Position numbers and translations under genes: made by a program. From Reclinomonas americana ATCC 50394 (lineage: Eukaryota): DNA of 45,511 bases. The notes under the pieces were generated by a model. It saw only the letters and a program-made list of their open reading frames with translations. It was not told where the DNA came from and made no database searches. The DNA lies in NCBI GenBank assembly GCA_048213135.1, contig PS015072.1:259403-304913 (forward strand), given 5' to 3'. This document shows positions 4,932 to 33,300 of this stretch, one piece after another; within the stretch, counting starts at the first letter, position 1, and each line of letters starts with the position of its first letter.

Positions 4932-6092
4932 TCACAAAAACTGCCTCTCCTCCGCCCACTTGCGCACCACAAGTCGCGCCTCCTCCACCATAAAACACCG
5001 CAACACAAACTCCACCAGCAACCGCTCTTCTTCCTCCTCCTCCTCCTCCTCCTCCTCTTCGCCCTCTTCCTCTGGCGGCTCCCACCTCTCCAGCAGCATC
5101 TGCTTCACCCACAGCAACGCCTCGTCGGCACACTGCAGTTCACGCCGTGCCATTCCGTACATGGTGGACCACAGCACCACCGCGCATCTCGTCGGGCTGC
5201 TGCTCACAATGTGCTGCCCGTCGCGGGATATCGCCACCGAGTACACCGGCTGCCCCGCGTGACCCTCCAGCCGTCGCACCTCCTCGCCACTCTCCAGCGC
5301 CCACACGCGCACCGTGCCATCACCACTGCCACTCACCGCATGCCGCCCATTCGGAGTAACCGCGAGCGACAACACCGCCCCCGTATGACCACGCAAGCAT
5401 CGCTCCTGCTTGCCACTCGCCAGCGACCACACGCGAACGACATCGTCCCAGCCGCCACTCAACACACGTCGCCCGCACGGAGTCACCGCCACCGCCTGCA
5501 CACTGCGCGTGTGCCCCACCAGTCGACGCACCTCCTCGCCTGTCTGCATCGACCACACTCGCACACTCGCATCCCAGCTGCCGCTCACCACCAGCGCACC
5601 ATCGGGCGTCACCGCCACCCCGCACACGCGATCCGTGTGACCCGTCAGTCGATGAACCCAGCTGCTGCCTCGCGACGACAGCAGAGACCACACTTTCACA
5701 GAGCAGTCGCCGCCTCCACTGACCACATACTGCGCGTCGGCTGTCACCGCGACACAGAACACCTCGGCAAAGTGGCCGCCGAGCACCCACTGCTCGCCAC
5801 TCTCCACGGCCCACACGCGCACTGACTCATCGCTGCTGGCGGAGACAATGAGGCGCCCGTCGCTTGAGACGCACACCGCGGCTATGTCGTCGGTGTGGCC
5901 CTCCAGGCGACGCATCTCCGCCGCGGGTGACGGAGAGAGCGACCACATGCACACTGTGCGGTTCCAGTTGCCGCCGACAATGTGGTGTCCGTCGGGGGTG
6001 AAGGTGACGCAGAGGCCGCCTCCTTTGCGCTGGTCGTCGTCGTCGTTGTCGGCAGCAGGAGTGATGCGCGTGCAGTGGAAGTCGGCGGTCAT
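4932..6092 (-). CDS. WD40-repeat protein, apparently single exon, with poly-Glu and a short helical C-terminus
   Basis: About 7 repeats of GH..V..VAV.PDG..VVSGS.D.SVRVW in ORF 4932..6509. Likely start is ATG 6092 (MTADFH); the upstream part of the ORF crosses an (AG)n tract. Confidence 0.85.
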   Translation of the reverse strand: MTADFHCTRITPAADNDDDDQRKGGGLCVTFTPDGHHIVGGNWNRTVCMWSLSPSPAAEMRRLEGHTDDIAAVCVSSDGRLIVSASSDESVRVWAVESGEQWVLGGHFAEVFCVAVTADAQYVVSGGGDCSVKVWSLLSSRGSSWVHRLTGHTDRVCGVAVTPDGALVVSGSWDASVRVWSMQTGEEVRRLVGHTRSVQAVAVTPCGRRVLSGGWDDVVRVWSLASGKQERCLRGHTGAVLSLAVTPNGRHAVSGSGDGTVRVWALESGEEVRRLEGHAGQPVYSVAISRDGQHIVSSSPTRCAVVLWSTMYGMARRELQCADEALLWVKQMLLERWEPPEEEGEEEEEEEEEEEERLLVEFVLRCFMVEEARLVVRKWAEERQFL

Positions 6093-6702
6093 TTGAAATG
6101 AGGAGAGAGAGAGAGAGAGAGGGCGGTGTCCCGCCCATTTGGAGAATGGCGAGAGTGTCTCTGTACTTGTGCACTTTGCTTGGAAAGAGTTGTGCATGCC
6201 CCTTTGCACAGCCGCAGGAAGAGCAATCCTGGCTATGGTCTGCAACGTCGACGTCGACTCTAGATCTTCCTTGTCGCGCTCCTGCAATGTTCTGGTGCCT
6301 TGAGAGTCCAGGTCTGTAGAAAACACGAGGCGACCTGCGCGTCTCTCAGCCTGTACGGAGCTGCTGGTGCTCCACTCGCTGCCTAAAAGCTTCGACGTCG
6401 ACGAACTGTACTTCGACGTCCGTTTCTTCCTTTTGCAGAGAAAAGGATCCAAAAGGGCACCAACGCAACGGACCTGGTGTATAGTGTCCCGGGTGAGCTG
6501 CGTACACACGCCGCCGTTCGACCAGGAGCTCAGTTTCCGACAGGACGCTGATCATTTGCATAAAAAGGTTTCAACTCGCTGTCTCTCTCTGTCTTCTTCA
6601 CTCTTCACTTTCCATCCTCTGTACTATCTCGCTCGTTTCTCTTCCGCTCCCTTCGCGATGTGTTGTCCGCCGGAAACCAATGTGTCACAATAACACGACA
6701 AA

Positions 6703-8506: not shown

Positions 8507-11188
8507 CATGGTGTTGTGCGCCGCTGACTCTAAAACCTCGCCAGGCCGCATTCGCCCTGTGCAACTCACCTGGGACAACATCATTGATATTACCCGCGAC
8601 TTTGCCGACTTGGTGGGTGAAGGCGGCGCCGGCAAGGTCTACTGGGGTACGATGGCCGGCAAGAAGGTAGTGGTGAAGCGCTTCGACAAGCAGGCTCCGT
8701 GGGGCGAGGAGTCGTTCCGGGTGGAGGTTTGTGTTGGATGGAGAAAGGGGGTTCTTTGCATGTTGTTTTGTTTGCTAACCATGCAGCAGCGCTCCATGCT
8801 CGCCCAATTCAACCACATTCCCGGCATTGTGCGCATGCTCGGCTACGCCATGTCCGACGACCACGATCAGTGCATTGTGCTGGAGGCCATGAGGTGCACA
8901 AGGGTGTGAGAGGGAGAGAGGGAGGAGTAAGACATCTTCACTGACTGAATATGCAATCGCCAGTCCGCATAACCTGGAGCACCGTCTCTTTGATCGCGAG
9001 AGTTCGATGACGATTCTGGAGCGCATGAGACACATGTATCGCCTTGTCAAGATCATTGTCAGATTGCACCAGTTGCGTGCGAGTTGTTGTGACTCGTGCT
9101 GACTTGCTGTTGTTCCTCACGCTTGCGATGATAATGAATGTTTGCAGGGAGGTTTCGTGCCACGTGTCCTTCTCGTCTTATCCCTTTTTGTTTCCTCACC
9201 GTCGTGCTCCACATGGCTTGCATTCACCTCACAGCATGGTTGGTTTTTCACTCCAGCTCTCTGCATGGCTGCTCCATTTTTTCTCACTCCTGTTGCTCGT
9301 GCAGGAATTCATCGCGACCTCAAGCCGGCCAACATCCTGTTTGACGACGCAGGCCGACTGCATGTCGCCGACCTCGGCATTGCTCAGCTCATGAACGACC
9401 CGAAAAAGGTTCTCCTTTCTCTGTCTCCAAGGGGAAGAGAAGGGGAAGGGAAAGGGCAAAGAGGGAAAAGGAGTGAGAAGTAGGGAAAAGGAGGGAGGAG
9501 GAGAGAGAGAAAGGAGAAAGAGGGAGAAAGAGGAGGGAGAGACAGACTCAGAAGCCGAGGGAAGCAAGAGACACACACAGACAGAGGCGACAGCTCTCTT
9601 CCCCTTCTCTTCCCCTTCTCATCCCCCTTTCCCCCTTCTCTTCCCCCTTCCATTCCCCCTTCTCTTCCCCTTCCATTCCCCCTTCTCTTCCCCTTCCATT
9701 CCCCTTCTCTTCCCCCTCTCTTTCCCCCTTCTCTTCCCCCTTCTTTTTCCCTCTTCCTTCTTCACGTTCCACCTTGTCTTCCCCCTGTTCCTTTCCCCTC
9801 TCACACACCCCTTTCTCCCCTCCCCTTCNNNNNNNNNNNNNNNNNNNNNNNNNNNNNNNNNNNNNNNNNNNNNNNNNNNNNNNNNNNNNNNNNNNNNNNN
9901 NNNNNNNNNNNNNNNNNNNNNNNNNNNNNNNNNNNNNNNNNNNNNNNNNNNNNNNNNNNNNNNNNNNNNNNNNNNNNNNNNNNNNNNNNNNNNNNNNNNN
10001 NNNNNNNNNNNNNNNNNNNNNNNNNNNNNNNNNNNNNNNNNNNNNNNNNNNNNNNNNNNNNNNNNNNNNNNNNNNNNNNNNNNNNNNNNNNNNNNNNNNN
10101 NNNNNNNNNNNNNNNNNNNNNNNNNNNNNNNNNNNNNNNNNNNNNNNNNNNNNNNNNNNNNNNNNNNNNNNNNNNNNNNNNNNNNNNNNNNNNNNNNNNN
10201 NNNNNNNNNNNNNNNNNNNNNNNNNNNNNNNNNNNNNNNNNNNNNNNNNNNNNNNNNNNNNNNNNNNNNNNNNNNNNNNNNNNNNNNNNNNNNNNNNNNN
10301 NNNNNNNNNNNNNNNNNNNNNNNNNNNNNNNNNNNNNNNNNNNNNNNNNNNNNNNNNNNNNNNNNNNNNNNNNNNNNNNNNNNNNNNNNNNNNNNNNNNN
10401 NNNNNNNNNNNNNNNNNNNNNNNNNNNNNNNNNNNNNNNNNNNNNNNNNNNNNNNNNTCTTCCTTCTTTACCTTCCCCCTTCACCTTCCCCCTTCTCTCC
10501 CCTTCTCCTTCCTCTTCTCCTTCCCCCTTCTCTCTCCGTCCTCCATCCCCCTTCTCTCCCCCTTCTCCTTCCCCCTTTCCCCCCTCCTCGTCCCCCTCCT
10601 CTTCTCCCTCTCCCTTCGCCCTTCTCATTCCCCTCACTTGACCTCCTCCACAGACATACGTACGCACCGACGTCCAAGCCGACTGGCAGTACCTCGACCC
10701 GTCGGCACGCGGAGGAATGCTGCGCAAAGCCTACGACGTCTACACCATCGGTCTCATCCTCATGCAAGTCTTCACCGGCCTCGACATCACCTCGGTGCAC
10801 ACCTATCTCGACCACCTCCGCGATCTGGATCTGCTCGGCAGCCGGGATCCGAGCCACAAGGCTGAGTATCTGCATGTCTGCCGCGAGCTCGGCGACAAAT
10901 CTTCGTCGGATGTGTGGCCGATCAGCATGAAGGAGGAAATTGTGGCACTGGCCCTCCAGTTGCGGCGTGCGCTCTGCGGTGTGTGTGTGCCTCTCTTTTG
11001 GCACTCATTCTCTTGATCTCTCTCTCAGATGCACCGACCCGAACCACCACAACCGCCCCACCAGTGAGGAACTGCTGAGGTCTCTCGCCGCGCTGAAGAA
11101 GCGCTCCATGGAGATAGTATGCGCCGTGTGCGATGAGGTTCTCACGCACGATGCACGATGTCGCACCTGCATGAGGCGCGGACTGTGA
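6703..11188 (+). CDS. Multi-exon IRAK/Pelle/RLK-like (TKL) protein kinase with a helical N-terminal domain and coiled coil
   Basis: Kinase motifs LVGEGGAGKVYWG, VVVKRF, SFRVE, GIHRDLKPANILFD, ADLGIA, YLDPS, YDVYTIGLIL, NRPT. It has the Pelle/RLK-typical lead-in LTWDNIIDITRDF. Exon 6703-7678 (phase-1 donor GTTGAG) joins the acceptor at 8066 in frame; further exons start at 8545, 9305, 10654 and 11029. The C-terminus has CxxC...CxxC. One intron spans an N gap. Confidence 0.8.
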
Positions 11189-12378
11189 AACAGCAGTCCG
11201 CAGAGAGGCGACCTGTTGAGGAAAAACAATGCACCGCAATGCGTGTTTCGACGTTTCCTTGGCTTTGCTAGAGGAGAAGCAGCCGTGTCGGAAGAAGCAG
11301 GCTCTTCTTGCGTTGGGGAGTTTGACAAGCCGGCCGGTTGATTTTTATGTTTTGCTTGGCGCTGCGGTACGTGGTGGGCTGTCGAGAAGAGCAGAGACAA
11401 CAGCTGTCTTGATGACCAAGTCCACCCACCTGCAGATTAGGCGACTGAAATCACCAGCAGTTGGCTGTCGCGGCTTCAAAAACATGCATCTGCTGACGAC
11501 GTGCTGAACAAGTGGACTGCGAGTGCTTCAGAAAGACCGAACGACTGTCACCAGCAGTCACAGGGCTGAACTGTACGACAAGCATGCATGTGCATTGGCC
11601 ATGGGTTGCATCATTGCATTGGTGCCAATGCTGAATTTGAGCCGGTCGCGGCGCCTCAACGGTGGACTGTCAAGGCTTCGCAAAGGCTGACTACTCTCAT
11701 CTGCAGGTATGCACACACGTCTCATGATCGATTGCAACGCTCCAAAAAAGGCCATGGCCAAAAAAAGCACTTGCAAGAACTGATCATGACTAGTACTGTG
11801 CAGTTCTTCAATGATGCACGGGCTTGTGGGTACCAGACACTCGCAGCGTGCAGTCTCCATGCAGATGGTTTACGAGTCGAGAGGTGTGCGTGAGTCACTA
11901 GATTCTAATATGCATTTCCATTTCGCATTCGATTTTCTCCGCTTTGCGCGCCAGTTGAGTGTGGTTTTCCCTTCTTCGTCGCTCATGATGCATTTGTCAT
12001 GAGCGACAACACACTCACTGCATATTCGTTCGCCTCTCTCCCTTGGCACAGAGAGACACACACACGCGCGCACACACACTCTTTGCATAATGTCTCTTTT
12101 CACTCACTGCGCGTGCACACACAAGCGGCTCTCTCTTGTCACCCACTCTCCTGTCACGCACTCTCTTCTGTGCGCACGTATCTCTCTCTCTGTGGGTGTG
12201 TCTCTCTGCATGTGTGTGCATGCGTGCGTGTGTGTGATGAGACACGCACGCAACCGACTTCACCAATACACATTATAGAAAACAAGAATATATAATTATC
12301 CCGCAATTTGCATGCTTCTGGACTCATGCATTAGCACTCTCTCACGCGCAGCACACGGTCAACCACACACACACGAGA

Positions 12379-15300
12379 ATGTCTGCATCCACTGGCATCA
12401 TGCGCTCTCTGCTTGCGCTTGTGCTGGTGATGATGTGCGCCATGTTGGCCATGGCGCCCCATTCCGCGCAGGCCGACCCCGCCAAATGGAACGGTTTCAA
12501 CTATCTGAGTGATCAATGGGCCTCGGCGTACCCGTACGACTCGGCCACGGCGACCACGCAGCTGGGACAGGTTTGTCGAGTTTTATTGTTTTTGGCATGC
12601 ATTCGGTTGCTTTTTACTATATTTGGTGATCGGCTCTCCTTTGCCTGCTCTCCTTCCCACTTGCCTTGTTCTCCTTTCTATATTCGATGCCGCCCTGTTC
12701 TCATGCCCTCTCACTGCCCTTTTCCTTTCACTTTATGTTTCTTGCATCCGGATTTCGATATCCTTCTTCTTGCCCCATTCTGCTTCTCGCATCCTCTCCC
12801 CCTCATTCTCGTTGCCCTGTTACTCTCCCCTCCCGCTTTCGCATCGTCTTCTTTCTTCTCCCTTTTCGTTCCCTTCTTCATTCCTCCATTCTCATTGCTC
12901 TTGTTCTCCTCCCGGTGTATCTTCCCAGTCTGTTCCTCTCTCTCTTCCTTGCCCGTATACGCGTGCGTCCCCCCGGCACCCTTTTGTTAGATCATTTGAT
13001 CCCTACCCATCTTTTCTATACCTTGCCCTTATAGTGTGACTTTATAGTTGTTCTCTACTCCTTTACCCTTGACCCCTTACCCTTGCTCCGTCGAGAAACC
13101 CGTCACCCGGTCACCAGGGGCCGTTCTTGTTGTGACCGTCAATGAGGATTTTGCGAGTCTGAAGTACTCGCTCATTGTCATTCGCTTTTCAGCCTCGTTT
13201 TGTTTGTGTTCTTGTGAGAACTGGTTAGCGCACTTTTAGCGCTGGAGTGGACCACCTCACTTAACATAGACACAGGCTTCCTCGTCTCTCAAGAGGACTC
13301 TCTCTACGCCTGTGCGTGATCTGAGCCGCAGCCATGGATCGTCTGTCTCCCGCGCATGAAACTGCGGGCAACGACTCTGTGCCTGAGACTCACACCGCGC
13401 CCTCGCGCTCGCATGACGCCGACTCTGACTCCTCTGGCCACATGGAGATGCGGTCGCCAGTGGATGATGAGATGACGTTTGAGGGCGACATGTCGCCCCC
13501 TGTTTCCCGCCCTCCCGCCCATGGCCACGACGACGCTTACGCGCCCGCTTTCGAGTCGAGTCCAACCATCTCTCTCCGTCGTGGTGCCCCGCGTGCGCCT
13601 CCGCCCCCGCCCACCGAGCCGCTTCCGTCGCCACCGGCTCAGTCGAGCGCGCGCCCGGCATTTCTTCGCTCACCGCCAGCGCCATCTGCCACCGCCACCG
13701 CCGCCGCCGACGCCGTCGACGGCGAGGTCAGTGACACCGGTGTTATCTTTCAAGGTCAATCGTCTGCGGATTCGGCGCCGCCACGCCGTTCCCGCACTGG
13801 CCAGCGCCAACCTGCCCGTACTCATGAGCGCCTACTGGAAGGCCTCCCCGACGCGGAGCAAGCAAGCGTCACGTCTCTTCTGGACAAGGCGCAGTCGCGT
13901 GGCGCGCCTCTTACCCGCTCGGCTGCTCGCGCGCAGTCACAAGCGCAAGTGCAAGATTCCGTTGGCAATGCGTCAGCACCCCCTCGCCAGCAGCAGCAGT
14001 CGCCGCCCGTTTCCCGCACCTCCGCGCCCGTCAAGCACACCTCGGATGCCCGCCGTCGGGAGCACTTCCGCAGTTCTCGTGATCGTGATTATGAGGACCG
14101 CCGCGACCGCTCTTCGTCGCCGTCGCGCTCCCGCCACCGCAGCGGCCGCCACCGCTCGTCAACCAGGTCGCCTCGTGGCTCGTCCAGTCCTCGCCGACGC
14201 AGTCACCGCTCGGACCGCTACGATTCTCGCTCGCCGTCGCGCAGTCGCCGCTCTCGCCGCACGCGCTCTCGCCACCACCGGCACCGAGGCAGCTCGCGCG
14301 AGTCCTCTTCGGCATCGTCTCGCGACTCGGCCTACTCACGTCGCCACCGCTCCCACCGCAGTCGCCGTCACGAGCGCCGCTCCCGCCGCGATGAGAGCTG
14401 GAGTCGCAGTCGCAGCGTCAGCCGGGAGCATCGCGCAGCCTCATCGTCGACTTTGCCCGGCATCAGTGCCACTGCAGCGCAGCCGGCGGGACCACTTTCG
14501 ACTCATGACCGGAACGCCACAACGCCCGTCGACCTCCTGAGGGACCACTCGCACGAACAAGGGTGGTCTGCGCACAACGAGCGCCCAGCTCAGAGCGTCG
14601 CCGAGCGTAGCACGATTTTGGCTGGCGTGCCGAACGGAATGGTCCTTGCCGCTGCCGCTCCGCCCGTTGCCGCCACCAGCTCCGCTGCCGCCACAGTGGC
14701 TGGTGCTGCCGCTTCGGACAAGCCGCGCTCGCAGTACACGCTGCCCAAGCTCACGCCGCCCTCGCTGGAAGAGAGTCTCCAGATGCTCGACGGCGGCTCC
14801 AACTACGAGGAGCGTAAGATCCTTCAGTTGACGGATCCCACTCACAACGTCTTCTTGAACTCCGCGGTGCTCAGTGCCCTTTCCGCTGCGAAGGACCACG
14901 GCTACATGAACGCCCAGTACACCAACCTGTGCGCGCTCACCCAATTGCTCCTGGAAATCATGCAGAACATGCGAGATAACCAGGTGCTCAACGCCGACGT
15001 GCTGGGCTCCGACGTTTTGGAGGACCTCAACCTGCTTCGTGGGCACTTACATCAGTCGGTTCTGGAGCACACGGCCTTTGTCACAATCCACGGTGCCGCG
15101 CCGAACAGGCTGCGAGAGTTTGTTGGCCATGTGTGGCAGCGGCTGCGCCCGTCGATCTTTGATTCCGGCGTCGCGCAATTCGCGGAGCGCGCCCACGCGG
15201 AGCGTAAGCTCAGCAAGCACGGCTTCGCCGTGCCAGTGGTTTCGCAGCCGATGGATCTCGGAGCCAACGCGCCCGTCACGTACACGCAGCCCGGTCCGAG

Positions 15301-18300
15301 CCAGTCGGCGGGTTCCAGCGACTACCGTGGCAATCGCACTGTCGACCGGCCGTCCGGCGCGCGCTACCGGCCCTTTCGTGGCAACTCGGAGCGCCCTGAC
15401 ATGGACGAGTACTTTCGCCGCCGCAAGCCCAACAACCGCAACGCCACTCTGCCCCGTGCGTCCGGCCAGCCTTCCACGTCAGCCACCACCACCACCACCT
15501 CTGCGAACCCTGCCGGTGGAGCCAAAAGCTCCGCCGGCGGCGGTCAATGAGCCCCCCCTTCAGCGCCTTGCCGGTCTCCCCGAGTCGGGACGACGGCTGT
15601 CCTTCGCGGCACACGATCACGTCAACCACTCTCAGTCCGCTGTCTCCAGCGTTGCTTCACGCCCCGCCGTACTTCGGCGGTCGTTGGACACAATCGGGCT
15701 TGTGGATTCCACCGCCGCGTCCGCCCGCTCCGTTGGCGAGCGATCCGATCCACCATTCGTCGGTGGAGCGGGTGGCATCGGACACCGTTCCGCTCACAGG
15801 CCGTCTAGCACGCTGCCTGCCGGCATGGCGCACCATTTGTCCAAGGGGGGACTCTCAAGTGCTACACTGGATCAACCACGGCTGCACGCCGCACTTCAAC
15901 GGAACAACACCACCGCCAATCATTCGACTTTCCAAGCCAATTACCGACCCCTCGCACCTCCACTTCGTCCGCACGGAACTCGTCCGACTACAAGGCCTGG
16001 GCGCCATTCGGCCGGCCTCGCCAGAGGAAGTGGAGCACTCCTCTCCGATCCGAGTGGTGACTCGTCGCCACAGCGCCAAGCTCCGCATCGTCACCGACCT
16101 CCGCTTGTACAACCTCTCCGTCTCCCCGCCACGCATCAAGTTCGAGGGCCTGCGGGACGCGGCGCAGATCGTCGGGCCACACGCGTGGATGTGCTCGATC
16201 GATATTCGCGACGCCTACCTGCACGCGGCTCTGGCGGAGGACATTCAGCACCCGATCCACTTCAACGTCAACCTGGCCGGAACCATTTCCCACTGGCGCG
16301 CGACAGCGATCCCATTCGGTCTGGCCGACTCGCCGTACTTTTGGCACACGATGATGAGCGTCGTGGTCGGTCACCTCCGTTCCCACTACCACATGCGGGT
16401 CTGCTGGCTCCTGGACGACCTCCTGTTAGTGTCGGAGTCGAAGGATCAAGCCGCCAAGGACGCAGCAATCGCCTGTCAGCTGATCGAGTCGCTCGGCATT
16501 GTCATCAACCGGCAGAAGTCTCAGCTGGAGCCGCTGCAGTCAATCAAGTTCCTCGGCCTGCTCATCAACACCTCGCAACAATCCCCACTCTTCGAAGTGC
16601 CGGAGGAGACGGTCAACGACATTCGCACGTTCGCTCGCTCAGTGCACTCAATCGCGACACGCTCGGAGGGTCGGGTGCCGGCACGGTTGCTGGCCAGTTT
16701 TGCGGGCAAGGCCAACTCCATCTCTCTGGCTCTGCGCTCGACACGCCTGCACACTCGCGAGTTTTTCAACTGCCTGTCGACTCTCCCACCGCACAACCGT
16801 TGGTCTCGTTGGGTCTCACTGTCGCCCCTGGCGATGGAGGAACTCAGCAACTTCTGGGCAACGCTGTCTCCGACGCAATGCATCAACTTCACCCGTCCGC
16901 CGTCTCTGCTTCGAGCGCTGCGCATCACGACCGACGCGAGCGACCAGGCGTGGGCGGCGACTTTGGACGCACCACTTCCATCAGCAACGACAACGCGTTT
17001 GGAGCTGGCGGAGCTCCCTCAGCGCATGATTCACGGTCCGTGGCTGCCGACGGCCAAGCGGTCCTTCACCATCGCAGCCAAAGAATTGGCAGCGGTGCTG
17101 ATTGCGGCCCATCACTTCCTCCCGGCGATTCGCAACCAGCGTCTGCTCCTGATCTCGGACAACAAGGCAGTGGTCTCCATCATCAACTCGGGGTGCAGCC
17201 GATCACCGCAACTGTTCTCTCTGGCACGCGAGCTGTGGTCGCTGCTGACGGAGGCCAACGTCGAGTTCTCCTGCCGGTGGACGAGCACCCACACCAACCA
17301 GGCCGACCGGCCGTCTCGCCAGTTCGACAAGTCAGCGTGGTCACTGTCGGACGAGGCGTGGCAGACAATCGTCTCGGCATTCGGCCTGCCGGAAGTGGAC
17401 CTCTTCGCATCACGCGACGCGCACCTGGTGAGCCGCTACTGCAGCTTCTTCCCGGATCAGGCGGCGTGGGCAATGGACGCCTTCTCGGTGCCGTGGTGCC
17501 GCGACGCTCTGCCGGACGGTCCACCGGATCGGCCGCCTCTCGTCTTCGCCAACGCGCCTTTTCGGCTGATTCCGCGCGTGCTCCAACATGCCGCCGAGAC
17601 TGGCCCCTGCAACCTCATTGTGGTAGCGCCGGTCTGGCCTTCTCGTCCGTGGTGGCGTCAACTGGTGACGGCGGCCTCTCATCACGTCGATCTGCCGTCG
17701 GACAGCTGTCGGCCGACACCGCTGCGGAATCGACGCCTCTTGCCAGAGCCATGGACGCACTGGCGTCTGCGCCTCCGCGCCTTCTTGATTCCTCCAGCTC
17801 CATGCTGGCTCGGGTCTCGAGGCGTGTGTGGCTCAACCCTTTGGAGCTGAAGCTGGCCGCATGACGCAAAATGGAGCAATCTGGGTAGGGAACAAAAGTT
17901 CCAACACTTTCTCGTTCCTCAATATCTCTCACTGCCCTTGTTCATCCCCCATTCTCCTCTCCGTTTTCCTTCTCCCATCTTCTTTCTTCCCTTGTCCTTC
18001 TCCCAATCAGTTTCCCCAGTCCTCTTCCCCTGCAGGTGCCCTTGTCTTTCACTCTTTTTCACCCATCCTCTCCCCCTCATACTCATTGTCCGTTCTCTCT
18101 CTCCTTCTCCTTCCTCCTTCTTCTTCTTCCTCTCCTTCTCCTTGCCCTTCTCCTTGCCCTTCTCCTTCTCCTCCTCCCACTCACTCTTTTGTCATCTTGC
18201 AGCTTGCCACCACCACCAGCTCCAACGCTGTGGCCTTCACCTGGGTCTGGTACATCAACAACGTCAACACGGCCACGACGCTGTACCGCGCACCGAATAC

Positions 18301-21300
18301 CCCCACCGACGCGGCTTTGGTGGCCATCACCAAGCAGGTCAGAGGGGAAGCGGAAAAGAACGCCAGCTTTTGCAGAGGATCACTCACTGCTCCCTTTTTG
18401 TGCCAAACAGGCCAAGACTCGTGGCCTGTACGTGATGTGGCGGTGAGTCGTTGATGTTGACTCCTCTCTTCTTCATGCACGACACTGACGACTTTTGCGC
18501 ACCCACCAGCCCCACGATCGACCCCGACTGGAGCATCTCGTCCAACAAGAACGAGTGGCGCGGACATATTGGCCAGGGATTCACCTCGGCCTCGCAGTGG
18601 ACCGCCTTCTTCTCCAGCTACCAGACCTTCATGGTCGCCTACGCCACGCTGGCGCAGGCCAACGCTGTCGACCACTTGTGCATTGGTCTGGAGATGACTG
18701 TGGCCTCGCGGCAATCGGCCTCCTACTGGACCACCGTTGCGCCCTCTCTCAATCATAACTTTATGCGTGTGTCTCTTTGTGTGCTCACACTTGTCCTCCA
18801 TACACAGCTGATCGCTGCTGTCCGCGCCAAGTTCACGGGCAAGATCAGCTTCCAGGCCAACCAGGGCGACGAAAACGTGGTCACCTTCTGGTCCTCGGTC
18901 GACTTTATCGGCGTCGACGCCTACTACGCGCTGGCGGCCAACATCTACCAGCCGACGGTCACCGACTTGACCAACGCCTGGAAGGGCATCATCACCAACC
19001 TGGCCAAGCTCTCCACCACCTACGGCAAGCAGGTCATTTTCGGCGAGATTGGCTACTGCTCGTCGAGCGGAACCAACGTCACGCCGTGGGACTGCGGCAA
19101 GAATGGAGTCAACCTGGTGGCACAGAAGAACGCCTACGAGGCGTTTTTCAAGGCGGTGTACTCGCAGACCTGGTTCAAGGGCGTGTTCTTCTGGGCGTGG
19201 TTGGCCGATCCCTCCGACAGCGGTGTGAACAACCCCGGCTACACTGTCAGCGGCAAGCCCGACGTCACGGCTCTGGTCAAGGCGTACTTTACTGCCGCTG
19301 CTGGCACGCCAGTGGTGGTGCCTCCCACCGTCACCTGCTCCGATGTCGCACCCACCTCGACGCTGACCTGCCCGCAGCAAGGTGCAACTCGGAGAGAGTG
19401 TGTTTTCCCCACACCGCACTTTCTCGTAACTCACTCTCTCTATTCCTCATCCAGCCGCCCTCGGAAACTGTGGACAGTCATGGATGAAGGGCTATTGCTG
19501 CAGCTCCTGCTTTGCCTGCACCGGCTGTGCGACTGCCGGCACTGGCCTGACGTGCGCTGATGTGCCGCCGCCGGCCGCCGCTGGTCAGACGCAGTACTCC
19601 TGCGCCCAGCAGGCCCTGTGGGGACAGTGCAACCAGACGTGGATGAAGGGCTACTGCGCGGCCACTTGCTTTGGCTGCCAGAATCAAGGCGCTCCCGGTG
19701 GCGGCGTCGCCAACCCGCCGTGCTCGGATGTGGTCGTGCCGACGGCCTCGCAGTACACGTGCGCCCAGCAGGCCTCGTGGGGCAAGTGCAACCAGGACTG
19801 GATGGCTGGCTACTGCTGCAACTCCTGCGGCACCTGCGGCACATCGCGGTGCACTATTCCCAACACGCCGGCTTGCGCTGATGTGCCGCCGCCGGCCGCC
19901 GCAGGCCAGACGCAGTTCACGTGCGCCCAGCAGCTTTCGTTCGGTGCCTGCAGCGCCTCATGGATGCAAGGCTACTGCTGCTCCACCTGCTTTGGCTGCA
20001 AGGCCGGGTGCGGAAAGACCAACCTGCCCGTGTGCACCGACACTCCGCCGCCAGCCTCCGGCGGCGTCTCATACACGCACAGGTACCCGTTTTTCCGGCC
20101 ACGTCACGGTACCATCACGGTCGCGTCACATGACGGGACAGTTCGGCTGTCGCGTCACGGTGACGTCATGTGATGCTACCGGACACTGTCCCGTCATGTG
20201 ACGCGACTGTGACGCGACTGTGACGCGACTCTGTTATATAATCCGGCGGCTGGCTGCGGGCGACCGTACTGCTTTGCCATGCGATGCTACAATATACTAC
20301 AACGTTCATTCATATTAAAATGCTCCAGCTGCACACAAAATCAGCTTCTGTGACCCTGCAGAGACACACAGATCGAGTGAGACGCCGGATGCTCAAGTAC
20401 ACACCACTGTACCGCCGCACCATTACCTCCACAGTGAGGCGATAGACAGCAGGCACTGGGTCCTGCCTCCGCACAATCACACACACACAGACAACTTGGC
20501 GTGAGACACTGCGCGGCAAGGCGGTGTAACACAAGCACCACCACCACCACAACAGCAACAAGGCCATCTCTCTCCACTCCTTTTCCTCCTCCTCCCACAA
20601 TTACCCAACAGCACGCAAGGCAGCAGCCGCACATACACGTCTCACTCCACTCCTCCTTCTCCTCCCACAATTACCCAACAGCACACAAGGCAGCAGCCGC
20701 ACATACAACATCTCACTCCACTCCTCCTCCTCCTTCCTCCTCCCACAATTACCCAACAGCACACAAGGCAGCAGCCGCACATACAACATCTCACTCCACT
20801 CCTCCTCCTCCTCCTCCCACACTCACCCCACAGCACACAAGGCAGCGGCCGCACATACAACATCTCACTCCACTCCTCCTTCTCCTCCTCCTCCTCCCAC
20901 ACTCACCCCACAGCACACAAGGCAGCAGCCGCACATACAACATCTCACTCCACTNNNNNNNNNNNNNNNNNNNNNNNNNNNNNNNNNNNNNNNNNNNNNN
21001 NNNNNNNNNNNNNNNNNNNNNNNNNNNNNNNNNNNNNNNNCACAAGGCAGCAGCCGCACATACAACATCTCACTCCACTCCTCCTTCTCCTCCTCCTCCT
21101 CCCACAATTACCCAACAGCACACAAGGCAGCAGCCGCACATACAACATCTCACTCCACTCCTCCTTCTCCTTCCTCCTCCTCCCACAATTACCCAACAGC
21201 ACACAAGGCAGCAGACGTACATACACGTCTCACTCCACTCCTCCTCCTCCTCCTCCTCCCACACTCACCCCACAGCACACAAGGCAGCAGACGTACATAC

Positions 21301-23982
21301 AACATCTCACTCCACTCCTCCTCCTCCTCCTCCTCCTCCCCCTTCCCGCACACTCACCCAACAACACACAAGGCAGCAGCCGCACATACTCGACGTGCAG
21401 CAGGCACTGGGCCTCCTGCCTCCACACATACACGCAGAAGACCGCGTGAGATGGTGCGACAAAGGAGCAAGTCCAATCAAATCACAACCACACACGGACA
21501 CACCCCACACGCACTCTCCGTAACAAAGACACTCACCCGCAGAAGCGCACACACCACAAACACAAGCGGGAGACCGAACGGACAAGTAGAGAAGAAGAGA
21601 AAGTGTAACACTGAAAGAAAGGTGTTCATGGAGAGAGACCACTCACCACAAGAGGAACGTCGCCACTAATGCCGGCGAGGGTGGACCAGCGTGCGCGTGT
21701 GTGAGTGATGACGACATGTGCGCGCGCGCGCGAAAACTCACAGTCACACACTTGTCACACGCATGCTGCTTTCACTCGCAAACGGTGTCCAATGACATCG
21801 GATACCGAGCTACACATCAAGCACACCAAGATGCGCTCAAACACACGTCAAACAACCATCGCGCGCTGGAAAGTGCGATTGGGCAGCTGACGTCATCTGT
21901 CCGGGCCACATCTGTCCCACGCACTCGACATCGATGTGGGGGCAGCCGTGGTGCGTTCTTTAGATTGTGGTAGTTTAGTGCAACTGTAGTGGTCGACGAT
22001 GCCTTGTGCGCAGCAAATAACGCGCGCTTTCCTCCGGTCGAGGATCGCTTCGCATTAATATTTAGAGCGCTCGTTGCGCTTGCAGAGGTGATGGCGAGCT
22101 CAAGGGTGTACTCAGTGTGTGCGCGCATGTGGCTCGGCGCGGCAACGTGTTCCACGCCAGTCTGGAGAGTGAGTCTGTCATCTCCACCAAAATTCCCTGA
22201 TGCGACTGGTCCGCACTTAGNNNNNNNNNNNNNNNNNNNNNNNNNNNNNNNNNNNNNNNNNNNNNNNNNNNNNNNNNNNNNNNNNNNNNNNNNNNNNNNN
22301 NNNNNNNNNNNNNNNNNNNNNNNNNNNNNNNNNNNNNNNNNNNNNNNNNNNNNNNNNNNNNNNNNNNNNNNNNNNNNNNNNNNNNNNNNNNNNNNNNNNN
22401 NNNNNNNNNNNNNNNNNNNNNNNNNNNNNNNNNNNNNNNNNNNNNNNNNNNNNNNNNNNNNNNNNNNNNNNNNNNNNNNNNNNNNNNNNNNNNNNNNNNN
22501 NNNNNNNNNNNNNNNNNNNNNNNNNNNNNNNNNNNNNNNNNNNNNNNNNNNNNNNNNNNNNNNNNNNNNNNNNNAGGTTGGCATGGCGACGAGTCATTGT
22601 GCCTCGGCACTGCGAACATTGGGAAAACTGGCGGTCTCTTTTTCTCCTGTTTCTGACAACTCTGTCGACTTCTGTTTGCGCGGTACCACGTGTGGTACAT
22701 CTGTGCACTTATGCGAGTGTACAAGGGTGGTCCTCGTGCACTCCCTGTTGTGTTTGAGCGTGTTTTCTCCCGCGCCCGCTTTTCCCGATTTGGAAAGTGG
22801 TGCGCGAAGTTCGGTCACGCACAGTTCTCGTTCCACACGTCTTCCCGTGCACAGAGGCATACGAGAATGACCGACGGGTGTTCCTCTTTGTATTCCACTG
22901 CTTAAATCTAGAAGGGCTGCTCACACTGCAGCGTCACTGTCGCGTCACACGACGGTATTGCGACGCGACATTGTTCGTCTGAAAACTTTTCGACCACGTT
23001 TCTCCCCAGTGGCGAGCCCATTTGTCGTGATTTTCACTCCTGGGCTCTTTACACACATGGCACTACATCTTCTGTGGAGTGGCGCACCAAAACATGCACC
23101 TCAGTGACGCTGTCTCGTCATTGTCCCGTCACATGATTGTACCGTGACGCGACAAAATTGGTATTTTTCATTTTTCTCGACAACCACGCATGCACATCGC
23201 ATGCCACACATACCAAACAACTCCTGAGACCACAGCGCACCGGGCGCATACCACAGAATGCGAATCCAAGCAACTTTTGTCGCGTCGCTGTCGCGTCACA
23301 CGTGATGGTACCGTGACGCTGTCCAAAAAACGGGGACCTGTGACGTGCGCCCAGCAGGTTCGTTTTGGAAAACACTGCACTTTGTTCTCTGTATGTCCGT
23401 CCACTCACTGTGTTGGAACGCCTGCAGCTCGCCTGGGGCAAGTGCTCTGCGTCGTGGATGTCTGGCTACTGCTGCTCGACGTGCGGCGGATGCAACGGCT
23501 GCACGCAGATCGCTCCGCCGGTGCAACCGACGGTTCTGCCGGCCTGCACCGATGTGGTGCCTCCCACCGCCACGCAGTACACGTGCGCCCAACAGGCCTC
23601 ATGGGGCAAGTGCAGCCAGTCGTGGATGCAGGGCTACTGCTGCAACACTTGCGGAACGGCCTCGTGCCAGAACTGCCGACAGACTGTCGTCAATGTGCCA
23701 GCCTGCACCGACATTGTGCCGCCCTCCTCGCCGCAGTACACGTGCGCTCAGCAGTCCGGCTGGGGCAAGTGTGGCGAAACGTGGATGGCTGGCTACTGCT
23801 GCAACACATGCGGCGGTTGCTCTGGTTGCAGCCGCGCGACGTCGACGTGCACCGACAACCCTCCGCCGGCCGCCGCCGGCCAGACGCAGTACTCGTGCGC
23901 CACCCAGGCCAGCTGGGGCAAGTGCGGCGAGACATGGATGAAGGGCTACTGCTGCAAGAGCTGCTTCAACTGCTCGTGCTGA
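12379..23982 (+). CDS. Secreted GH113-like glycoside hydrolase (beta-mannanase-like) with eight C-terminal ShK-like Cys-rich repeats; interrupted by two mobile elements
   Basis: Exons 12379-12570, 18203-18337, 18411-18442, 18510-18735, 18808-19381, 19455-20077, [insertion], 23346-23357 and 23428-23982 join in frame. Signal peptide present. GH113-like motifs: WRGHI, WTAFFSSY, YATLAQ, CIGLE (acid/base Glu 18691), LIAAVRAKFTG, FWSSVDFIGVDAYY, VIFGEIGY (nucleophile Glu 19045), GVFFWAW. Confidence 0.85.
13334..15550 (+). CDS. Gag-like ORF1 of the DIRS-like element (738 aa, Pro-rich and RS-rich, with a helical C-terminal core)
   Basis: Long intronless ORF directly upstream of pol; its TGA overlaps the pol ATG (ATGA 15547-15550). 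The gag call is positional, and no zinc knuckle is seen. Confidence 0.7.
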   Translation: MDRLSPAHETAGNDSVPETHTAPSRSHDADSDSSGHMEMRSPVDDEMTFEGDMSPPVSRPPAHGHDDAYAPAFESSPTISLRRGAPRAPPPPPTEPLPSPPAQSSARPAFLRSPPAPSATATAAADAVDGEVSDTGVIFQGQSSADSAPPRRSRTGQRQPARTHERLLEGLPDAEQASVTSLLDKAQSRGAPLTRSAARAQSQAQVQDSVGNASAPPRQQQQSPPVSRTSAPVKHTSDARRREHFRSSRDRDYEDRRDRSSSPSRSRHRSGRHRSSTRSPRGSSSPRRRSHRSDRYDSRSPSRSRRSRRTRSRHHRHRGSSRESSSASSRDSAYSRRHRSHRSRRHERRSRRDESWSRSRSVSREHRAASSSTLPGISATAAQPAGPLSTHDRNATTPVDLLRDHSHEQGWSAHNERPAQSVAERSTILAGVPNGMVLAAAAPPVAATSSAAATVAGAAASDKPRSQYTLPKLTPPSLEESLQMLDGGSNYEERKILQLTDPTHNVFLNSAVLSALSAAKDHGYMNAQYTNLCALTQLLLEIMQNMRDNQVLNADVLGSDVLEDLNLLRGHLHQSVLEHTAFVTIHGAAPNRLREFVGHVWQRLRPSIFDSGVAQFAERAHAERKLSKHGFAVPVVSQPMDLGANAPVTYTQPGPSQSAGSSDYRGNRTVDRPSGARYRPFRGNSERPDMDEYFRRRKPNNRNATLPRASGQPSTSATTTTTSANPAGGAKSSAGGGQ
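15547..17850 (+). CDS. DIRS-type pol: reverse transcriptase, RNase H and Dam-like N6-adenine methyltransferase (767 aa)
   Basis: RT: GRLARCLPAW, LRIVTDLRLYN, SIDIRDAYLH, IPFGLADSP, WLLDDLLL (16408-16419), INRQKS, FLG. RNase H: TTDAS, KELAAV, SDNKAVV, NQADRPSR. MTase: VDLFAS (17398), DAFSVPW, FANAPF (17551), APVWPSRPWW. Confidence 0.93.
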   Translation: MSPPFSALPVSPSRDDGCPSRHTITSTTLSPLSPALLHAPPYFGGRWTQSGLWIPPPRPPAPLASDPIHHSSVERVASDTVPLTGRLARCLPAWRTICPRGDSQVLHWINHGCTPHFNGTTPPPIIRLSKPITDPSHLHFVRTELVRLQGLGAIRPASPEEVEHSSPIRVVTRRHSAKLRIVTDLRLYNLSVSPPRIKFEGLRDAAQIVGPHAWMCSIDIRDAYLHAALAEDIQHPIHFNVNLAGTISHWRATAIPFGLADSPYFWHTMMSVVVGHLRSHYHMRVCWLLDDLLLVSESKDQAAKDAAIACQLIESLGIVINRQKSQLEPLQSIKFLGLLINTSQQSPLFEVPEETVNDIRTFARSVHSIATRSEGRVPARLLASFAGKANSISLALRSTRLHTREFFNCLSTLPPHNRWSRWVSLSPLAMEELSNFWATLSPTQCINFTRPPSLLRALRITTDASDQAWAATLDAPLPSATTTRLELAELPQRMIHGPWLPTAKRSFTIAAKELAAVLIAAHHFLPAIRNQRLLLISDNKAVVSIINSGCSRSPQLFSLARELWSLLTEANVEFSCRWTSTHTNQADRPSRQFDKSAWSLSDEAWQTIVSAFGLPEVDLFASRDAHLVSRYCSFFPDQAAWAMDAFSVPWCRDALPDGPPDRPPLVFANAPFRLIPRVLQHAAETGPCNLIVVAPVWPSRPWWRQLVTAASHHVDLPSDSCRPTPLRNRRLLPEPWTHWRLRLRAFLIPPAPCWLGSRGVCGSTLWS
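20078..23342. mobile_element. Non-autonomous CMC/CACTA-like DNA transposon inserted in a coding exon
   Basis: TIRs 20078-20119 and 23301-23342 (CACAGGT(A/C)CCCGTTTTT...CGTCACGGTACCATCACG, 36/42 identical). The 3-bp TSD ACG lies at 20075-20077 and 23343-23345. Removing the element plus one ACG restores TAC ACG TGC GCC CAG CAG (YTCAQQ). Confidence 0.92.
20590..21390. repeat. Minisatellite, about 10 copies of a ~65-85 bp unit, inside the DNA transposon
   Basis: Repeated CACAAGGCAGCAGCCGCACATACAACATCTCACTCCACTCCTCC...TCCCACAATTACCCAACAG with a variable (TCC)n stretch; spans an N gap. Confidence 0.9.
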
Positions 23983-24464: not shown

Positions 24465-24955
24465 TCTCTCGTGTCGTCGTCGTCGTCGGGTCGGGTACGT
24501 ACGTAGTGTACGTAGTACGTACGTAGTAGTAGTATTACGTACGTTACTTACCTAACTAACGTAAGTCGGTACGACTAACTAACTCCGTCCGTCGTACGGA
24601 CGACCGAACGACCGCCGACGANNNNNNNNNNNNNNNNNNNNNNNNNNNNNNNNNNNNNNNNNNNNNNNNNNNNNNNNNNNNNNNNNNNNNNNNNNNNNNN
24701 NNNNNNNNNNNNNNNNNNNNNNNNNNNNNNNNNNNNNNNNNNNNNNNNNNNNNNNNNNNNNNNNNNNNNNNNNNNNNNNNNNNNNNNNNNNNNNNNNNNN
24801 NNNNNNNNNNNNNNNNNNNNNNNNACTACTCGTCTACGTCGTACGCGACGTCGTCGGCGACGTATACGTACGTACGTCGTACGTACGTCGACGTATACGT
24901 AGTAGTCGTACGTACGTAGTATACGTACACGACTAGTAGTAGTAGTGTCGTCGTG

Positions 24956-27408: not shown

Positions 27409-27531
27409 TGGTGTCGTTGCGAGAGTACAACGTGGAGTCGTTAGAACGGAAGGTGTTGCATGCAGAGGTGAGAGCGACTATCGCTGACAGTGAGGAGGTT
27501 GTCGTTGGTGGNNNNNNNNNNNNNNNNNNNN

Positions 27532-27690: not shown

Positions 27691-30600
27691 GGTGCTTGCA
27701 GAGTCAACTGGAGTCTTGAACGAAGGTGTTGCATGCAGAGGGTGAGAGCGACTATCGCTGACAGTGAGAGGGTTGTCTTGGTGTGGAGAGCTGCTGTACA
27801 CAAGTGTGTGGGAGCGGTCTTATGCGTTGTGAAGCGAGAGGAATTGCACCGCTGCTGAAATGAGTGGGCATCTTTTCTGTCTTGAAGGGCGAAAGAGAGA
27901 ACGAGAGAGTGAAGAGCTGGTGCTTGCAGAGTTAGACCAGCAGCTCTGCTGGAGAAAGTGTCTTGTGGCATGTTAGGCGCAGAATAGTTGCATCGCCGTC
28001 GTGAGTTTAAATTCTCTTGCACTACGAAGAAGCCGTTCGGCGGGAGTAAATCGCACCGCTGCTGAATGAGAGGGCATCTCTTCTGTTGTGAAGGGAGCAG
28101 AGAGAGAGAGAGAGGGTGTCTTTTGTCGTGAAGGTAGCCATCGGAGCAGAATCAGAGATGGCGCGACGCAACAAGTGAGATCATGTCTTTCGATGTGACG
28201 AAAGGCAGAGTCAGAGTCGCTGGGTGGAAGGGCGTGCGCAGAGATTACGGGAGTGAGAATATGTGTCATGAAGGGATTGTAGCGTGACGCAAGGAGTGAG
28301 GAGAGTGCACACCGCGATAGTACTGGATAAGAAAATGTCTCTTTGTTGTATCTGGTGGCTGACTGCTCTCTGCGTCGTGTTGTGCAGGCTTCGGATTGAC
28401 TGACAGTTGCGGAGTGAGGTGCTGGCGTTTTTTGTTGTGCAAGAACTGACATTGCGTGTGTGTTTCTTTCCCCACACTGTGCGATACAGTGTTCTGGGTG
28501 CGTCTTTCGTACTGAAGCACGTTCGATGTGCCATCCTCTTGCTCACTCTTTGTTTGTCTTCTGCAGGCGTTTGGCCAATTCATCGCCCAGTGCGTAGCTT
28601 CTCTTCCGTCTTCTTTATCATCGCATTGCTCACCACTTCTCTGTACCCCTTTCACCCTTGCCATCAACAGCGACATGGTGAGTCTCACGCTTTTCACAGC
28701 CGCCTGTCTCCCCCCTGCTCATTTCCTCCCCCTCTCAGGAAATGGCTCGCCGCGAGACACGCACCCTGACCAACGGCAGCCCGCCGCTCCCGACTCGCGC
28801 CGACATTACCGGTGTCGAGATGTGCGGGTCGGTCGGCAGCATTCCCTTCACGCGCAACTACAACACCATCTACCCTCTCGTGAAGGTAACGAGGAGTATG
28901 TCGCGAGTCCTTGGCGTCTTCTGTTGCTCACTGTCACTGCTGTGCAGGATAACATCACAACGCCGTCGCAGACCAATGTCGTGACGCACTACGTGGATGG
29001 TGCGCTTCGCCGTTCCTTCTCCTGACTGTCTTCCTCTCTTCTCATATCGAGACGTGCAGCTTCCACTGTGTACGGCAGCGACCCGCTGCGTGCGAATGTT
29101 CTCCGAGAGCACGTCGGTGGTCGCATGCTCGTCTCAAATGCGCCGGCCGATGCCATCATCAACGACGGTCCACTGCCTCCGACCAACACTCGCGGCCTCG
29201 CCAACCAGCCGATTCACTCGCCCGACTTCTTTGTCGGTGGCGACATTCGTGCCAACGACAATCAGGCGATCCTGGCGCTGCACACGCTGTTCTTGCGCGG
29301 TGCGTCTGCACAATAAGGAAAGGGTGCGATTCATGCACTCACCCCTTTTCGTAGAGCACAACCGCATCGCCAATTGCCTGAGCACCACGGACACGGTGCA
29401 GCCAGCGACGTGCGAGGACGGGTTGTGGGCGTTGCGCTCGCAGCCGCGCGTGCCGCTGGTGGACGATGAGTCGATCTATCAGTACGCGCGGCACTTGCTG
29501 ATTGGACAGTATCAGCGGATCTTTTTCCAGGATTATTTGGGGAAGGGTGAGCCGGGGGGAAGCGGGAGAAGGGGAAGGGGGTGAAAGGGAAAGGGAGAAG
29601 GAGGGAAGGGGGAAGAATATGTGAGCGAGAGCGAGGAGGCAGGAAAGGGAGTAAAGTGAGAGAGGAGGAAGGGAGAAGAAAAGATGAGGAAAGTGAGAAG
29701 GAGGGAGGTAGTGAGGGGGGAAGGGGGAGAAGGGGAAGGGGGCGCAAGGGAAAGGGAGAAGGAGGGAAGGGGAGGAATGAGTGAGCGAGAGCGAGGAGGC
29801 AGGAAAGGGAGTAAAGTGAGAGAGGAGGAAGGGAGTAAAGTGAGAGAAATAGTGAGGGGGGAAGGAGCGAGGGAAAGAAGGTGAGGAGGCAGAAAAGGGG
29901 GGACATGTGAGAGTAGAAAGAGGAGAGGAAGAAAGAAGAAGAGACGAGGAAAAGAAAGAAGGTACAGCGAGGTGCGGTGAGGAAAGAGACGCATGTTAAT
30001 TGGAGTGACGCGGTAAGGGGAGAAGAAATGAGCAGGAGAGGGAAAGCGGTGAGAAGGTGGGCATGCTGGAACAGTGTAAATGAGAACCCTTGAGAGAAGA
30101 GAAAGAAACGACGGGGACAAGTGACGAGAGAGCGGCGCAACTGGAAGAAGTGATGTGCAGCGCTCAATTGAAGCGTAAAGGATTGAGCGGCGTTCGCTTA
30201 CAATCGTGATGCCTGATAACAGTGTTCTTCCTCAACGCGCCGCCGGTCAACGGCAAGGTTCCGAAGTTCACCGATGATTACAAGGTGTGTTGGGGTGGGA
30301 GAAAGGGAGTGCGAGAGAGTGGGCCGAGTCACGGACCGTTGGCTGAATGTCGCGCAATGTTGCACGAAGAGTGGAGAGAGACTCGTCCGCGAAGAACGCA
30401 GATAACTCTCTTGGCCAGAGAGGGGAAGAGAGCCGGAGGCAGGGAAAGCAGCAGCAAGAGACATGAAGCGAGAATGTGCAGAATGAGGTGCGCGCAGCTA
30501 CCACTGCTGGCAAGCTTGTACACGAGAGAGAAACAGTGACAAGCTTGTTCTTCGATGAGAGAGAAAGAGATAGCAACAAACACTGAGAATCGTGGCCGAA

Positions 30601-33033: not shown

Positions 33034-33112
33034 GATACCGCAGGCTGCTGGACCACTCGTGTTTGCTTTTTCAGTTCTCAGCCACCTTGCCCAACAATTA
33101 ATGAAGATGTGG

Positions 33113-33300
33113 AAGGTGAGAAGGCTGAGAAGGGTGGAGTGGAGAGTTGATTGTCGGCAGAGCTGGAGTGGTTTGAGAAGGACTGAGGACGACAGAGAAC
33201 ATGCGCGCTTTTGTCACTCTACAAAGGTGAGAAAGCTGAGAAGGGTGGAGTGGAGTTGACTGTTGTAAGAGCTCAAGTGGTTGAGGATGACAGAGAGCAT
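33113..33300. repeat. Diverged ~110 bp tandem duplication downstream of the peroxidase stop
   Basis: AAGGTGAGAA(G/A)GCTGAGAAGGGTGGAGTGGAG at about 33113 and 33223. Confidence 0.75.

Follow-up and report, generated by a model that had tools for sequence, protein, structure and literature searches.

What is the standing of a DIRS-like retroelement that has an open polymerase gene and two recognisable ends, and carries no integration enzyme that can be seen? The tyrosine recombinase is the defining feature of DIRS elements, whose replication is understood less well than that of any other retrotransposon. The question is raised by a locus of Reclinomonas americana ATCC 50394, on contig PS015072.1 of assembly GCA_048213135.1 (positions 259,403 to 304,913 of the forward strand). 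This whole stretch of 45,511 nucleotides is called the 45.5-kb window, or the window, below, and all coordinates count from its first letter. An initial annotation, made from the letters alone, had placed in it a DIRS-like retroelement with open gag and pol frames and no integrase of any kind. Here we describe the genes, the termini and the missing module of this element, which we tentatively read as a recombinase-less DIRS1-like derivative that would make its own complementary DNA (cDNA) and need a recombinase supplied in trans.

A DIRS-type polymerase and a long upstream frame

The element contains two long uninterrupted open reading frames (ORFs), much as the initial annotation had it. ORF1 (13334-15550) and ORF2 (15547-17850), both on the plus strand, encode 738 and 767 amino acids (aa), and measured from stop to stop they run to 741 and 816 aa, against a mean of 230 aa and a maximum of 425 aa for the longest ORF in 300 shuffles of the element. 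ORF2 is the pol gene. It comprises a reverse transcriptase (RT; about 16153-16560) with the motif LLDD at 16408-16419 (aa 288-291), an RNase H domain (about 16918-17196) with the acidic residues D/E/D/D at TDAS, KELAA, SDNK and ADRPS, and a Dam-like tail (about 17332-17770) with DLFAS at 17398 and NAPF at 17551.

Among the Pfam families, ORF2 matches RVT_1 with an E value of 2.5e-15 over aa 203-338, and its match to RT_RNaseH is weak, at 20.7 bits below the cut-off of 24.8. A profile built from ten sequences including ORF2 matches the RT-RNase H structures of cauliflower mosaic virus (CaMV) and Ty3 over both domains, with E values of 7.9e-48 and 7.5e-42, and in the underlying alignment the aspartates of RT, the four acidic residues of RNase H and the C-terminal DLFAS and xPPF motifs are conserved. 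Taken one by one, all ten members of the alignment match RVT_1 at E ≤ 0.01, six match RT_RNaseH and five match Dam. ORF2 itself gives no Pfam match to Dam; its tail aligns over the whole length with those of its relatives and reads NAPF where they have FPPF or NPPF, and for residues 596-767 the best named ESM Atlas cluster (score 0.92) has Dam in 11% of its members. Of the earlier label of RT, RNase H and methylase, the first two parts are thus borne out, and the tail would be Dam-like by homology rather than a proven methylase.

The G+C content (GC) of ORF2 at the three codon positions, 0.62/0.53/0.76, is of the coding type. We also considered a third frame, free of stops for 984 aa (14910-17861, plus strand), as a hidden overlapping recombinase (compare DIRS-1). 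It has no Pfam match at E ≤ 1, its GC by codon position is that of non-coding DNA (0.71/0.65/0.56), and it is probably a shadow ORF that arises from GC-rich coding DNA.

ORF1 divides into two parts. Its N-terminal half is of low complexity and shows a flat GC by codon position; its C-terminal 298 codons give values of the coding type (0.64/0.51/0.79; a host exon, for comparison, gives 0.50/0.48/0.83), and the C-terminal part of about 300 aa is predicted to be helical. A single-sequence fold of ORF1 is all-helical and of low confidence (predicted local distance difference test, 42.8), too poor for a fold search. ORF1 belongs to no Pfam family, and its residues 440-738 found no match in a word-indexed protein search. 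An exhaustive search of 1.84 billion representatives returned two matches, P0047 (in 8 stretches) and P0048, both of which we rejected as spurious, these proteins being internally repetitive; in the ESM Atlas, ORF1 matched only unnamed eukaryotic clusters, with a best score of 0.91. The earlier pair of names, gag and pol, therefore describes two genes that are indeed open, of which the first is gag-like by position only: with no credible homologue, "gag" is a positional label here.

Overall, ORF1 consists of 15% Ser and 13% Arg. An Arg/Ser-rich tract at 14090-14490 (about aa 255-385) resembles the RS (Arg/Ser) domains of splicing factors. This tract may take the place of the zinc knuckle of some gag proteins and may have a role in binding nucleic acid. 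The stop codon of ORF1 and the start codon of ORF2 overlap as ATGA (15547-15550), and since the frame of ORF2 has no stop from 15400 onwards, pol could be expressed by reinitiation or by a -1 shift.

Both ends of the element are recognised

What is new here is that both ends of the element are recognised. An imperfect inverted repeat of 25 nt, complementary at 21 of 25 positions, connects 12985-13009 with 17882-17906, and it moves the borders of the element from the earlier estimate of 12995-17896 to 12985-17906, a length of 4922 bp; the element lies where it had been placed, with shifted ends. The left arm runs from TGTT to CCCA, with an imperfect outer part of 15 nt and a perfect inner part of 10 nt, and the right arm runs from TGGG to AACA. 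The ends of the element thus read TGTTAGATC...TCCCTACCCA, with TGTT...AACA as the outermost letters, and the tetranucleotide CTTT stands directly outside each arm, at 12981-12984 on the left and, as a second copy, at 17907-17910 on the right.

Both arms coincide with the two breaks in base composition. On the right, the pyrimidine-rich intron sequence that surrounds the element (87% C+T) resumes at 17907, 56 nt past the pol stop, against about 50 nt in the initial annotation. On the left, the arm is followed by a 5' leader of 324 nt (13010-13333), the first 100 nt or so of which (13010-13110) are 71% pyrimidine. The 31 nt that separate the pol stop from the right arm (17851-17881) are too few for an internal complementary region (ICR; see below) or for any ORF. 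The layout is accordingly asymmetric, with 349 nt before ORF1 and only 56 nt after pol. A repeat search of the element found no direct repeat of at least 20 nt joining the two ends, so the element has neither long terminal repeats (LTRs) nor split direct repeats.

How strong is the evidence for these termini? A 17-mer of the right arm, allowing up to three mismatches, occurs in the window only at the two ends of the element (0.04 occurrences expected), and two matches were seen in none of 100 shuffles. The score of the inverted repeat was reached by none of 2000 shuffles and by 35 of 2000 pairs (1.75%) taken from the real window 4.9 kb apart. A 4-nt match at a fixed register, such as that of the CTTT pair, has a chance of 1.9% in this intron, and the pair fits a shared recombination core and a 4-bp duplication equally well. 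Since both termini are present, a plain 3' truncation, the outcome against which the initial annotation had set its proposal, is disfavoured by the 25-nt inverted repeat and by the CTTT at both ends.

The integration module is absent

DIRS1-like elements carry gag, a recombinase and an RT-RNase H-methyltransferase (MT) gene between inverted repeats of 66-316 bp (28 annotated elements; Piednoel et al. 2011, PMC3266345), and in the same account two ICRs, together 85-130 bp long, precede the right repeat. In a six-frame Pfam scan of the surrounding region, the 47 ORFs of at least 90 aa between 11.2 and 21.5 kb contain no Phage_integrase, integrase core, transposase or endonuclease, and the same holds for the 117 ORFs of at least 130 aa elsewhere in the window. 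Neither an aspartic protease nor a DDE integrase is found as a Pfam family in any frame around the element.

Searches with known recombinases gave the same picture. When recombinase-bearing DIRS proteins were used as tblastn queries against the window, only their RT-RNase H-MT part matched (residues 47-624 of the 1007 of protein P0008), and three DIRS recombinase regions used as queries had no match in it. A custom hidden Markov model (HMM) of the DIRS recombinase, built from 23 hit proteins and the related metagenomic locus L002, returned a best E value of 1.4 in the window and 8.6 inside the element, that is, no match. The claim that no tyrosine recombinase, DDE integrase or endonuclease is visible on either strand holds for the ORFs scanned throughout the window. 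As for an ICR, the best internal matches to the joined termini score 18 and 21, in the range of shuffled sequence (mean 20.3, maximum 31). Relative to DIRS1-like elements, the absent module is, as judged from sequence comparison, the ORF of the recombinase, together with the ICR and the larger part of the right repeat.

Relatives of the polymerase

A protein search with ORF2 returned 46 hits, all with RVT_1. The best are P0001 (44% identity over 94% coverage, 773 aa) and P0002 (42%, 679 aa); the other 44 show 24-30% identity and include a group of fusion proteins of about 1000 aa that join RT, RNase H, MT and recombinase. P0008 and P0029 are such fused proteins, and P0029 has a precomputed match to PF00589. 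Metagenome contigs yielded four related loci, all of them distant (25-31% identity) and short; no relative was found in viral contigs or in contigs of prokaryote genomes. The DIRS-like assignment of the initial annotation is supported by the DIRS-type pol over its full length, by RVT_1 and by these relatives with a fused recombinase.

At two of the metagenomic loci, a frame that overlaps the 3' end of pol passes the pol stop: in L002 (3-2216) it matches Phage_integrase with an E value of 1.8e-4, below the cut-off, and in L003 (257-2143) it carries a faint signal of the N-terminal domain of the recombinase (HMM E value 0.17). In a third locus, L001, a frame downstream of pol had been taken on inspection for a possible N-terminal domain of a recombinase; with a BLASTP E value of 0.11 at the expected place, no Pfam match and no HMM hit, we did not retain it. 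In relatives, in the fused proteins as in L002, the recombinase thus sits directly after pol, exactly where the element has only its 31 nt.

An RT phylogeny had been proposed along with the initial annotation. In a quick maximum-likelihood tree of 26 rows (22 of the 46 hits, three locus translations and the ORF2 of the window, with near-identical and fragmentary hits left out), ORF2 forms a clade with P0001 and P0002 (SH-like approximate likelihood ratio test, SH-aLRT, 98), and L001 is its sister (95). LLDD is common to ORF2, P0001 and P0002, the other seven aligned sequences having Y/M/V-x-DD, and is a marker of this clade. In their protein sequences all three members end pol at the same point, without a fused recombinase; because they end alike, the C-terminus of ORF2 is natural and not truncated.

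Origin and mobility of the element

The initial annotation had offered a young deletion derivative, a partner mobilised in trans or a recombinase-less lineage, and each of the three recurs among the candidate readings below. We favour, at somewhat less than an even chance, the reading of the element as a DIRS1-like derivative without a recombinase, coding but integration-defective and in that sense "half-autonomous". On this reading, the RNA of the element would be copied into cDNA by its own pol, and the completion of the ends and the insertion would need the recombinase of an autonomous relative able to recognise these termini, probably along with further help. The CTTT would then be a short sequence common to the element junction and the target, as the DIRS1 integration model predicts. 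Several observations point in this direction. The pol is DIRS-type over its full length. In published DIRS1-like inverted repeats a small outer part is "divergent" and the boundary, over at least 10 nt, is conserved; DIRS1-like insertion is described as proceeding via a 3-bp sequence common with the target and without duplication (PMC3266345). The imperfect outer part and perfect 10-mer of our repeat match the former, and CTTT fits the recombination of a 3-bp junction with an identical genomic sequence. Help in trans has precedents, in that the RT and proteins of DIRS-1 are reported to act in trans (PMC7192593) and TOC1 of Chlamydomonas is described as a non-autonomous DIRS element (PMC9940879). 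Because both ORFs are open and show coding-type GC at third codon positions, the copy should be young or its coding capacity maintained. The ICR was found by experiment to be essential for DIRS-1 retrotransposition (Malicki et al. 2020, PMC7192593), and with the ICR lost, full autonomy by the canonical route is unlikely.

Other observations weigh against this reading. One copy is known, in the window, where we found no second copy, solo terminus or recombinase-bearing partner. The 25-nt inverted repeat is supported moderately, given the 1.75% of real-sequence control pairs that score as high, and it is far shorter than the 66-316 bp given for the 28 annotated DIRS1-like elements (PMC3266345). 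The loss is also a neat one, which leaves 31 nt after the pol stop and a 25-nt terminus; this would be rare for a random deletion, and a native architecture explains the clean absence of the module equally well. Moreover, TG...CA ends with a 4-nt flanking repeat are also the trace of a DDE integrase, and without an ICR there is no evident way to regenerate full-length ends, even with a recombinase in trans.

If a complete DIRS1-like insertion with a recombinase later suffered a single internal deletion, which began just past the pol stop and stopped 25 nt short of the right end, the element would be a one-off dead copy that never moved in its present form. Incomplete copies are usual, most fungal ones being described as short, truncated or incomplete (PMC3783388); an internal loss would retain both ends and the flanking CTTT, a single event would explain a right repeat of 25 nt against the 349 nt before ORF1 as well as the loss of the ICR, and the window holds no second copy. 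However, random breakpoints would by our estimate land so close to the pol stop (31 nt) and to the end (25 nt) in well under 1% of cases, and with all 1505 codons of the two ORFs still open the deletion would have to be recent; we regard this explanation as rather unlikely, if a serious contender. An ordinary 3'-truncated copy would require the inverted repeat and the CTTT to be chance matches and the true left end to lie elsewhere in 12985-13110. The real control pairs that reach the repeat score leave some room for this, as do the gradual break in composition on the left, where 13010-13110 is still 71% pyrimidine, and the general frequency of truncated copies (PMC3783388). Against it, the two arms coincide exactly with the breaks, the right one ending where the 87%-pyrimidine intron resumes, no shuffle in either series (0 of 100 and 0 of 2000) matched the repeat, and a cut 56 nt past an intact pol stop is itself unlikely, which together make truncation quite improbable. 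A collapsed or mis-joined repeat might finally have produced the junction between pol stop and terminus during assembly, the window being part of a gapped draft with five N runs (1292 N). Yet there is no N from 10458 to 20954, hence none near the element, and matching halves of one intron lie on either side of it, with GT..AG borders and a continuous host frame, so that an artefact is very improbable.

The remaining explanation takes the absence of the module as native. Here, the clade of ORF2, P0001 and P0002 would be a lineage that has lost recombinase and ICR for good and integrates independently of a recombinase; a linear DNA with inverted TG...CA ends would insert, producing a 4-bp duplication, by way of a borrowed DDE integrase or transposase or of host repair. 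The TGTT...AACA ends with CTTT on both sides would suit such a route, since tyrosine-recombinase elements are described as lacking target-site duplications (PMC4157794, PMC3266345), and so would the separate clade (SH-aLRT 98) with its common LLDD, the three pols that stop at the same point without a fused recombinase, and the very clean absence of the module. Nevertheless, the element has no LTRs or other known means of regenerating full ends, and the window contains no integrase or transposase. A separate recombinase ORF is, according to a recent preprint (bioRxiv 10.64898/2026.05.21.726589), the usual DIRS layout, so that an unfused pol says little; recombination via a short shared core would leave a short flanking repeat just as well (PMC3266345); and a 4-nt match arises by chance in about 2% of cases at one register and more often with the register left free. 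We consider a recombinase-independent lineage improbable, and we give a similarly low probability to the proposal that a deep DIRS-derived lineage marked by LLDD consists of gag-pol-only units with 25-bp TG...CA ends and a 4-bp duplication, and so forms a class without an integration enzyme of its own.

What this copy displays directly is its open genes, its termini and the missing module; its history is putative in each of these readings. An element that retains an open gag-like gene, pol and both termini and has lost just the recombinase and the ICR would uncouple the synthesis of cDNA from the completion of its ends and its integration. Should it represent a family, integration can rely on help in trans or on some other route, and the family would be a natural test case for the terminal sequences that a recombinase requires; a single deleted copy would be an instance of ordinary decay. 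The interest of the locus would be high only if the gag-pol-only layout belongs to a propagating family.

Genomic setting

The element lies in sense orientation within an intron of a predicted host gene for a secreted GH113-type protein on the plus strand, between an exon with a signal peptide and the exons that encode a GH113 domain. Exon 1 (12379-12570, an ORF call) encodes an N-terminus that resembles a signal peptide, and a GT donor follows it at 12571. Intron 1 (12571-18202, GT..AG) measures 5632 nt, or about 710 nt without the element, and the host exons that follow (18203-19557; acceptor AG at 18201-18202) include an open frame at 18436-19557 with the GH113 domain (Pfam, E value 5.2e-38). 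The exon 1 piece itself has no Pfam match to GH113; it is assigned to the downstream gene from its frame and the GT..AG pair. On the 3' side of the GH113 domain, at 19430-20170, repeated six-cysteine modules of the pattern C...C...C...C..C..C end in YC..TC.GC; they match no Pfam family at E ≤ 0.001.

In the Pfam scan, the host genes of the window further include a WD40 protein (4935-6551, minus strand), haem-peroxidase exons (28985-33256, plus strand), a PUB/UBX protein (33799-35103, minus strand) and a protein kinase exon (42911-43684, plus strand), and the NHL family is also represented. The surroundings of the element are thus gene-rich DNA of ordinary host genes, with no repeat cluster. 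Rfam and tRNA scans of the window gave no matches, and a protein search with the PUB/UBX ORF returned no hit. The five N runs by which the window is recognised as a gapped draft assembly lie at 9829-10457, 20955-21040, 22221-22574, 24622-24824 and 27512-27531, and low GC values near them are partly caused by the N.

Comparison with known systems

In the open-access literature we found no paper on a DIRS lineage without a recombinase; Repbase reports and subscription journals were outside the scope of this search. The closest parallels are with DIRS1-like elements, with which the element shares the order of an ORF1 followed by an RT-RNase H-Dam-like pol and the lack of a DDE integrase and a protease. 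It would further share with them inverted termini that are imperfect on the outside and have a perfect core of at least 10 nt, and a short identical sequence on both sides. It differs from them in having neither a tyrosine recombinase ORF nor an ICR, in its repeat of 25 nt as against 66-316 bp, and in LLDD in place of Y-x-DD. The order of pol and recombinase in its relatives is the PAT-like one, and PAT-like elements also carry the MT domain, which Ngaro elements are described as lacking (PMC3266345). However, PAT-like and Ngaro-like elements have split direct repeats (A1...B1 A2 B2), of which the element has none of at least 20 nt.

A Dam domain and a recombinase are typically found in separate ORFs, and LTR elements with an integrase of their own have acquired the Dam domain (bioRxiv 10.64898/2026.05.21.726589). 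As described in that preprint, these DAM-LTR retrotransposons resemble the element in combining a DIRS-derived Dam-like domain with the absence of a tyrosine recombinase. They have a Ty3/Gypsy-type RT, LTRs and a DDE integrase, whereas the element has a DIRS-type RT and none of these.

Other parallels are found among non-autonomous elements. SIRE is described as a truncated, non-autonomous form of VIPER, short and built from pieces of the VIPER ends (PMC6681497). Like TOC1 and SIRE, the element has no recombinase of its own and would presumably rely on an autonomous relative whose ends it shares. TOC1 is not known to encode gag or pol. In the present element, by contrast, the gag-like and the pol ORF are both complete and open, and only the integration module appears to be lost.

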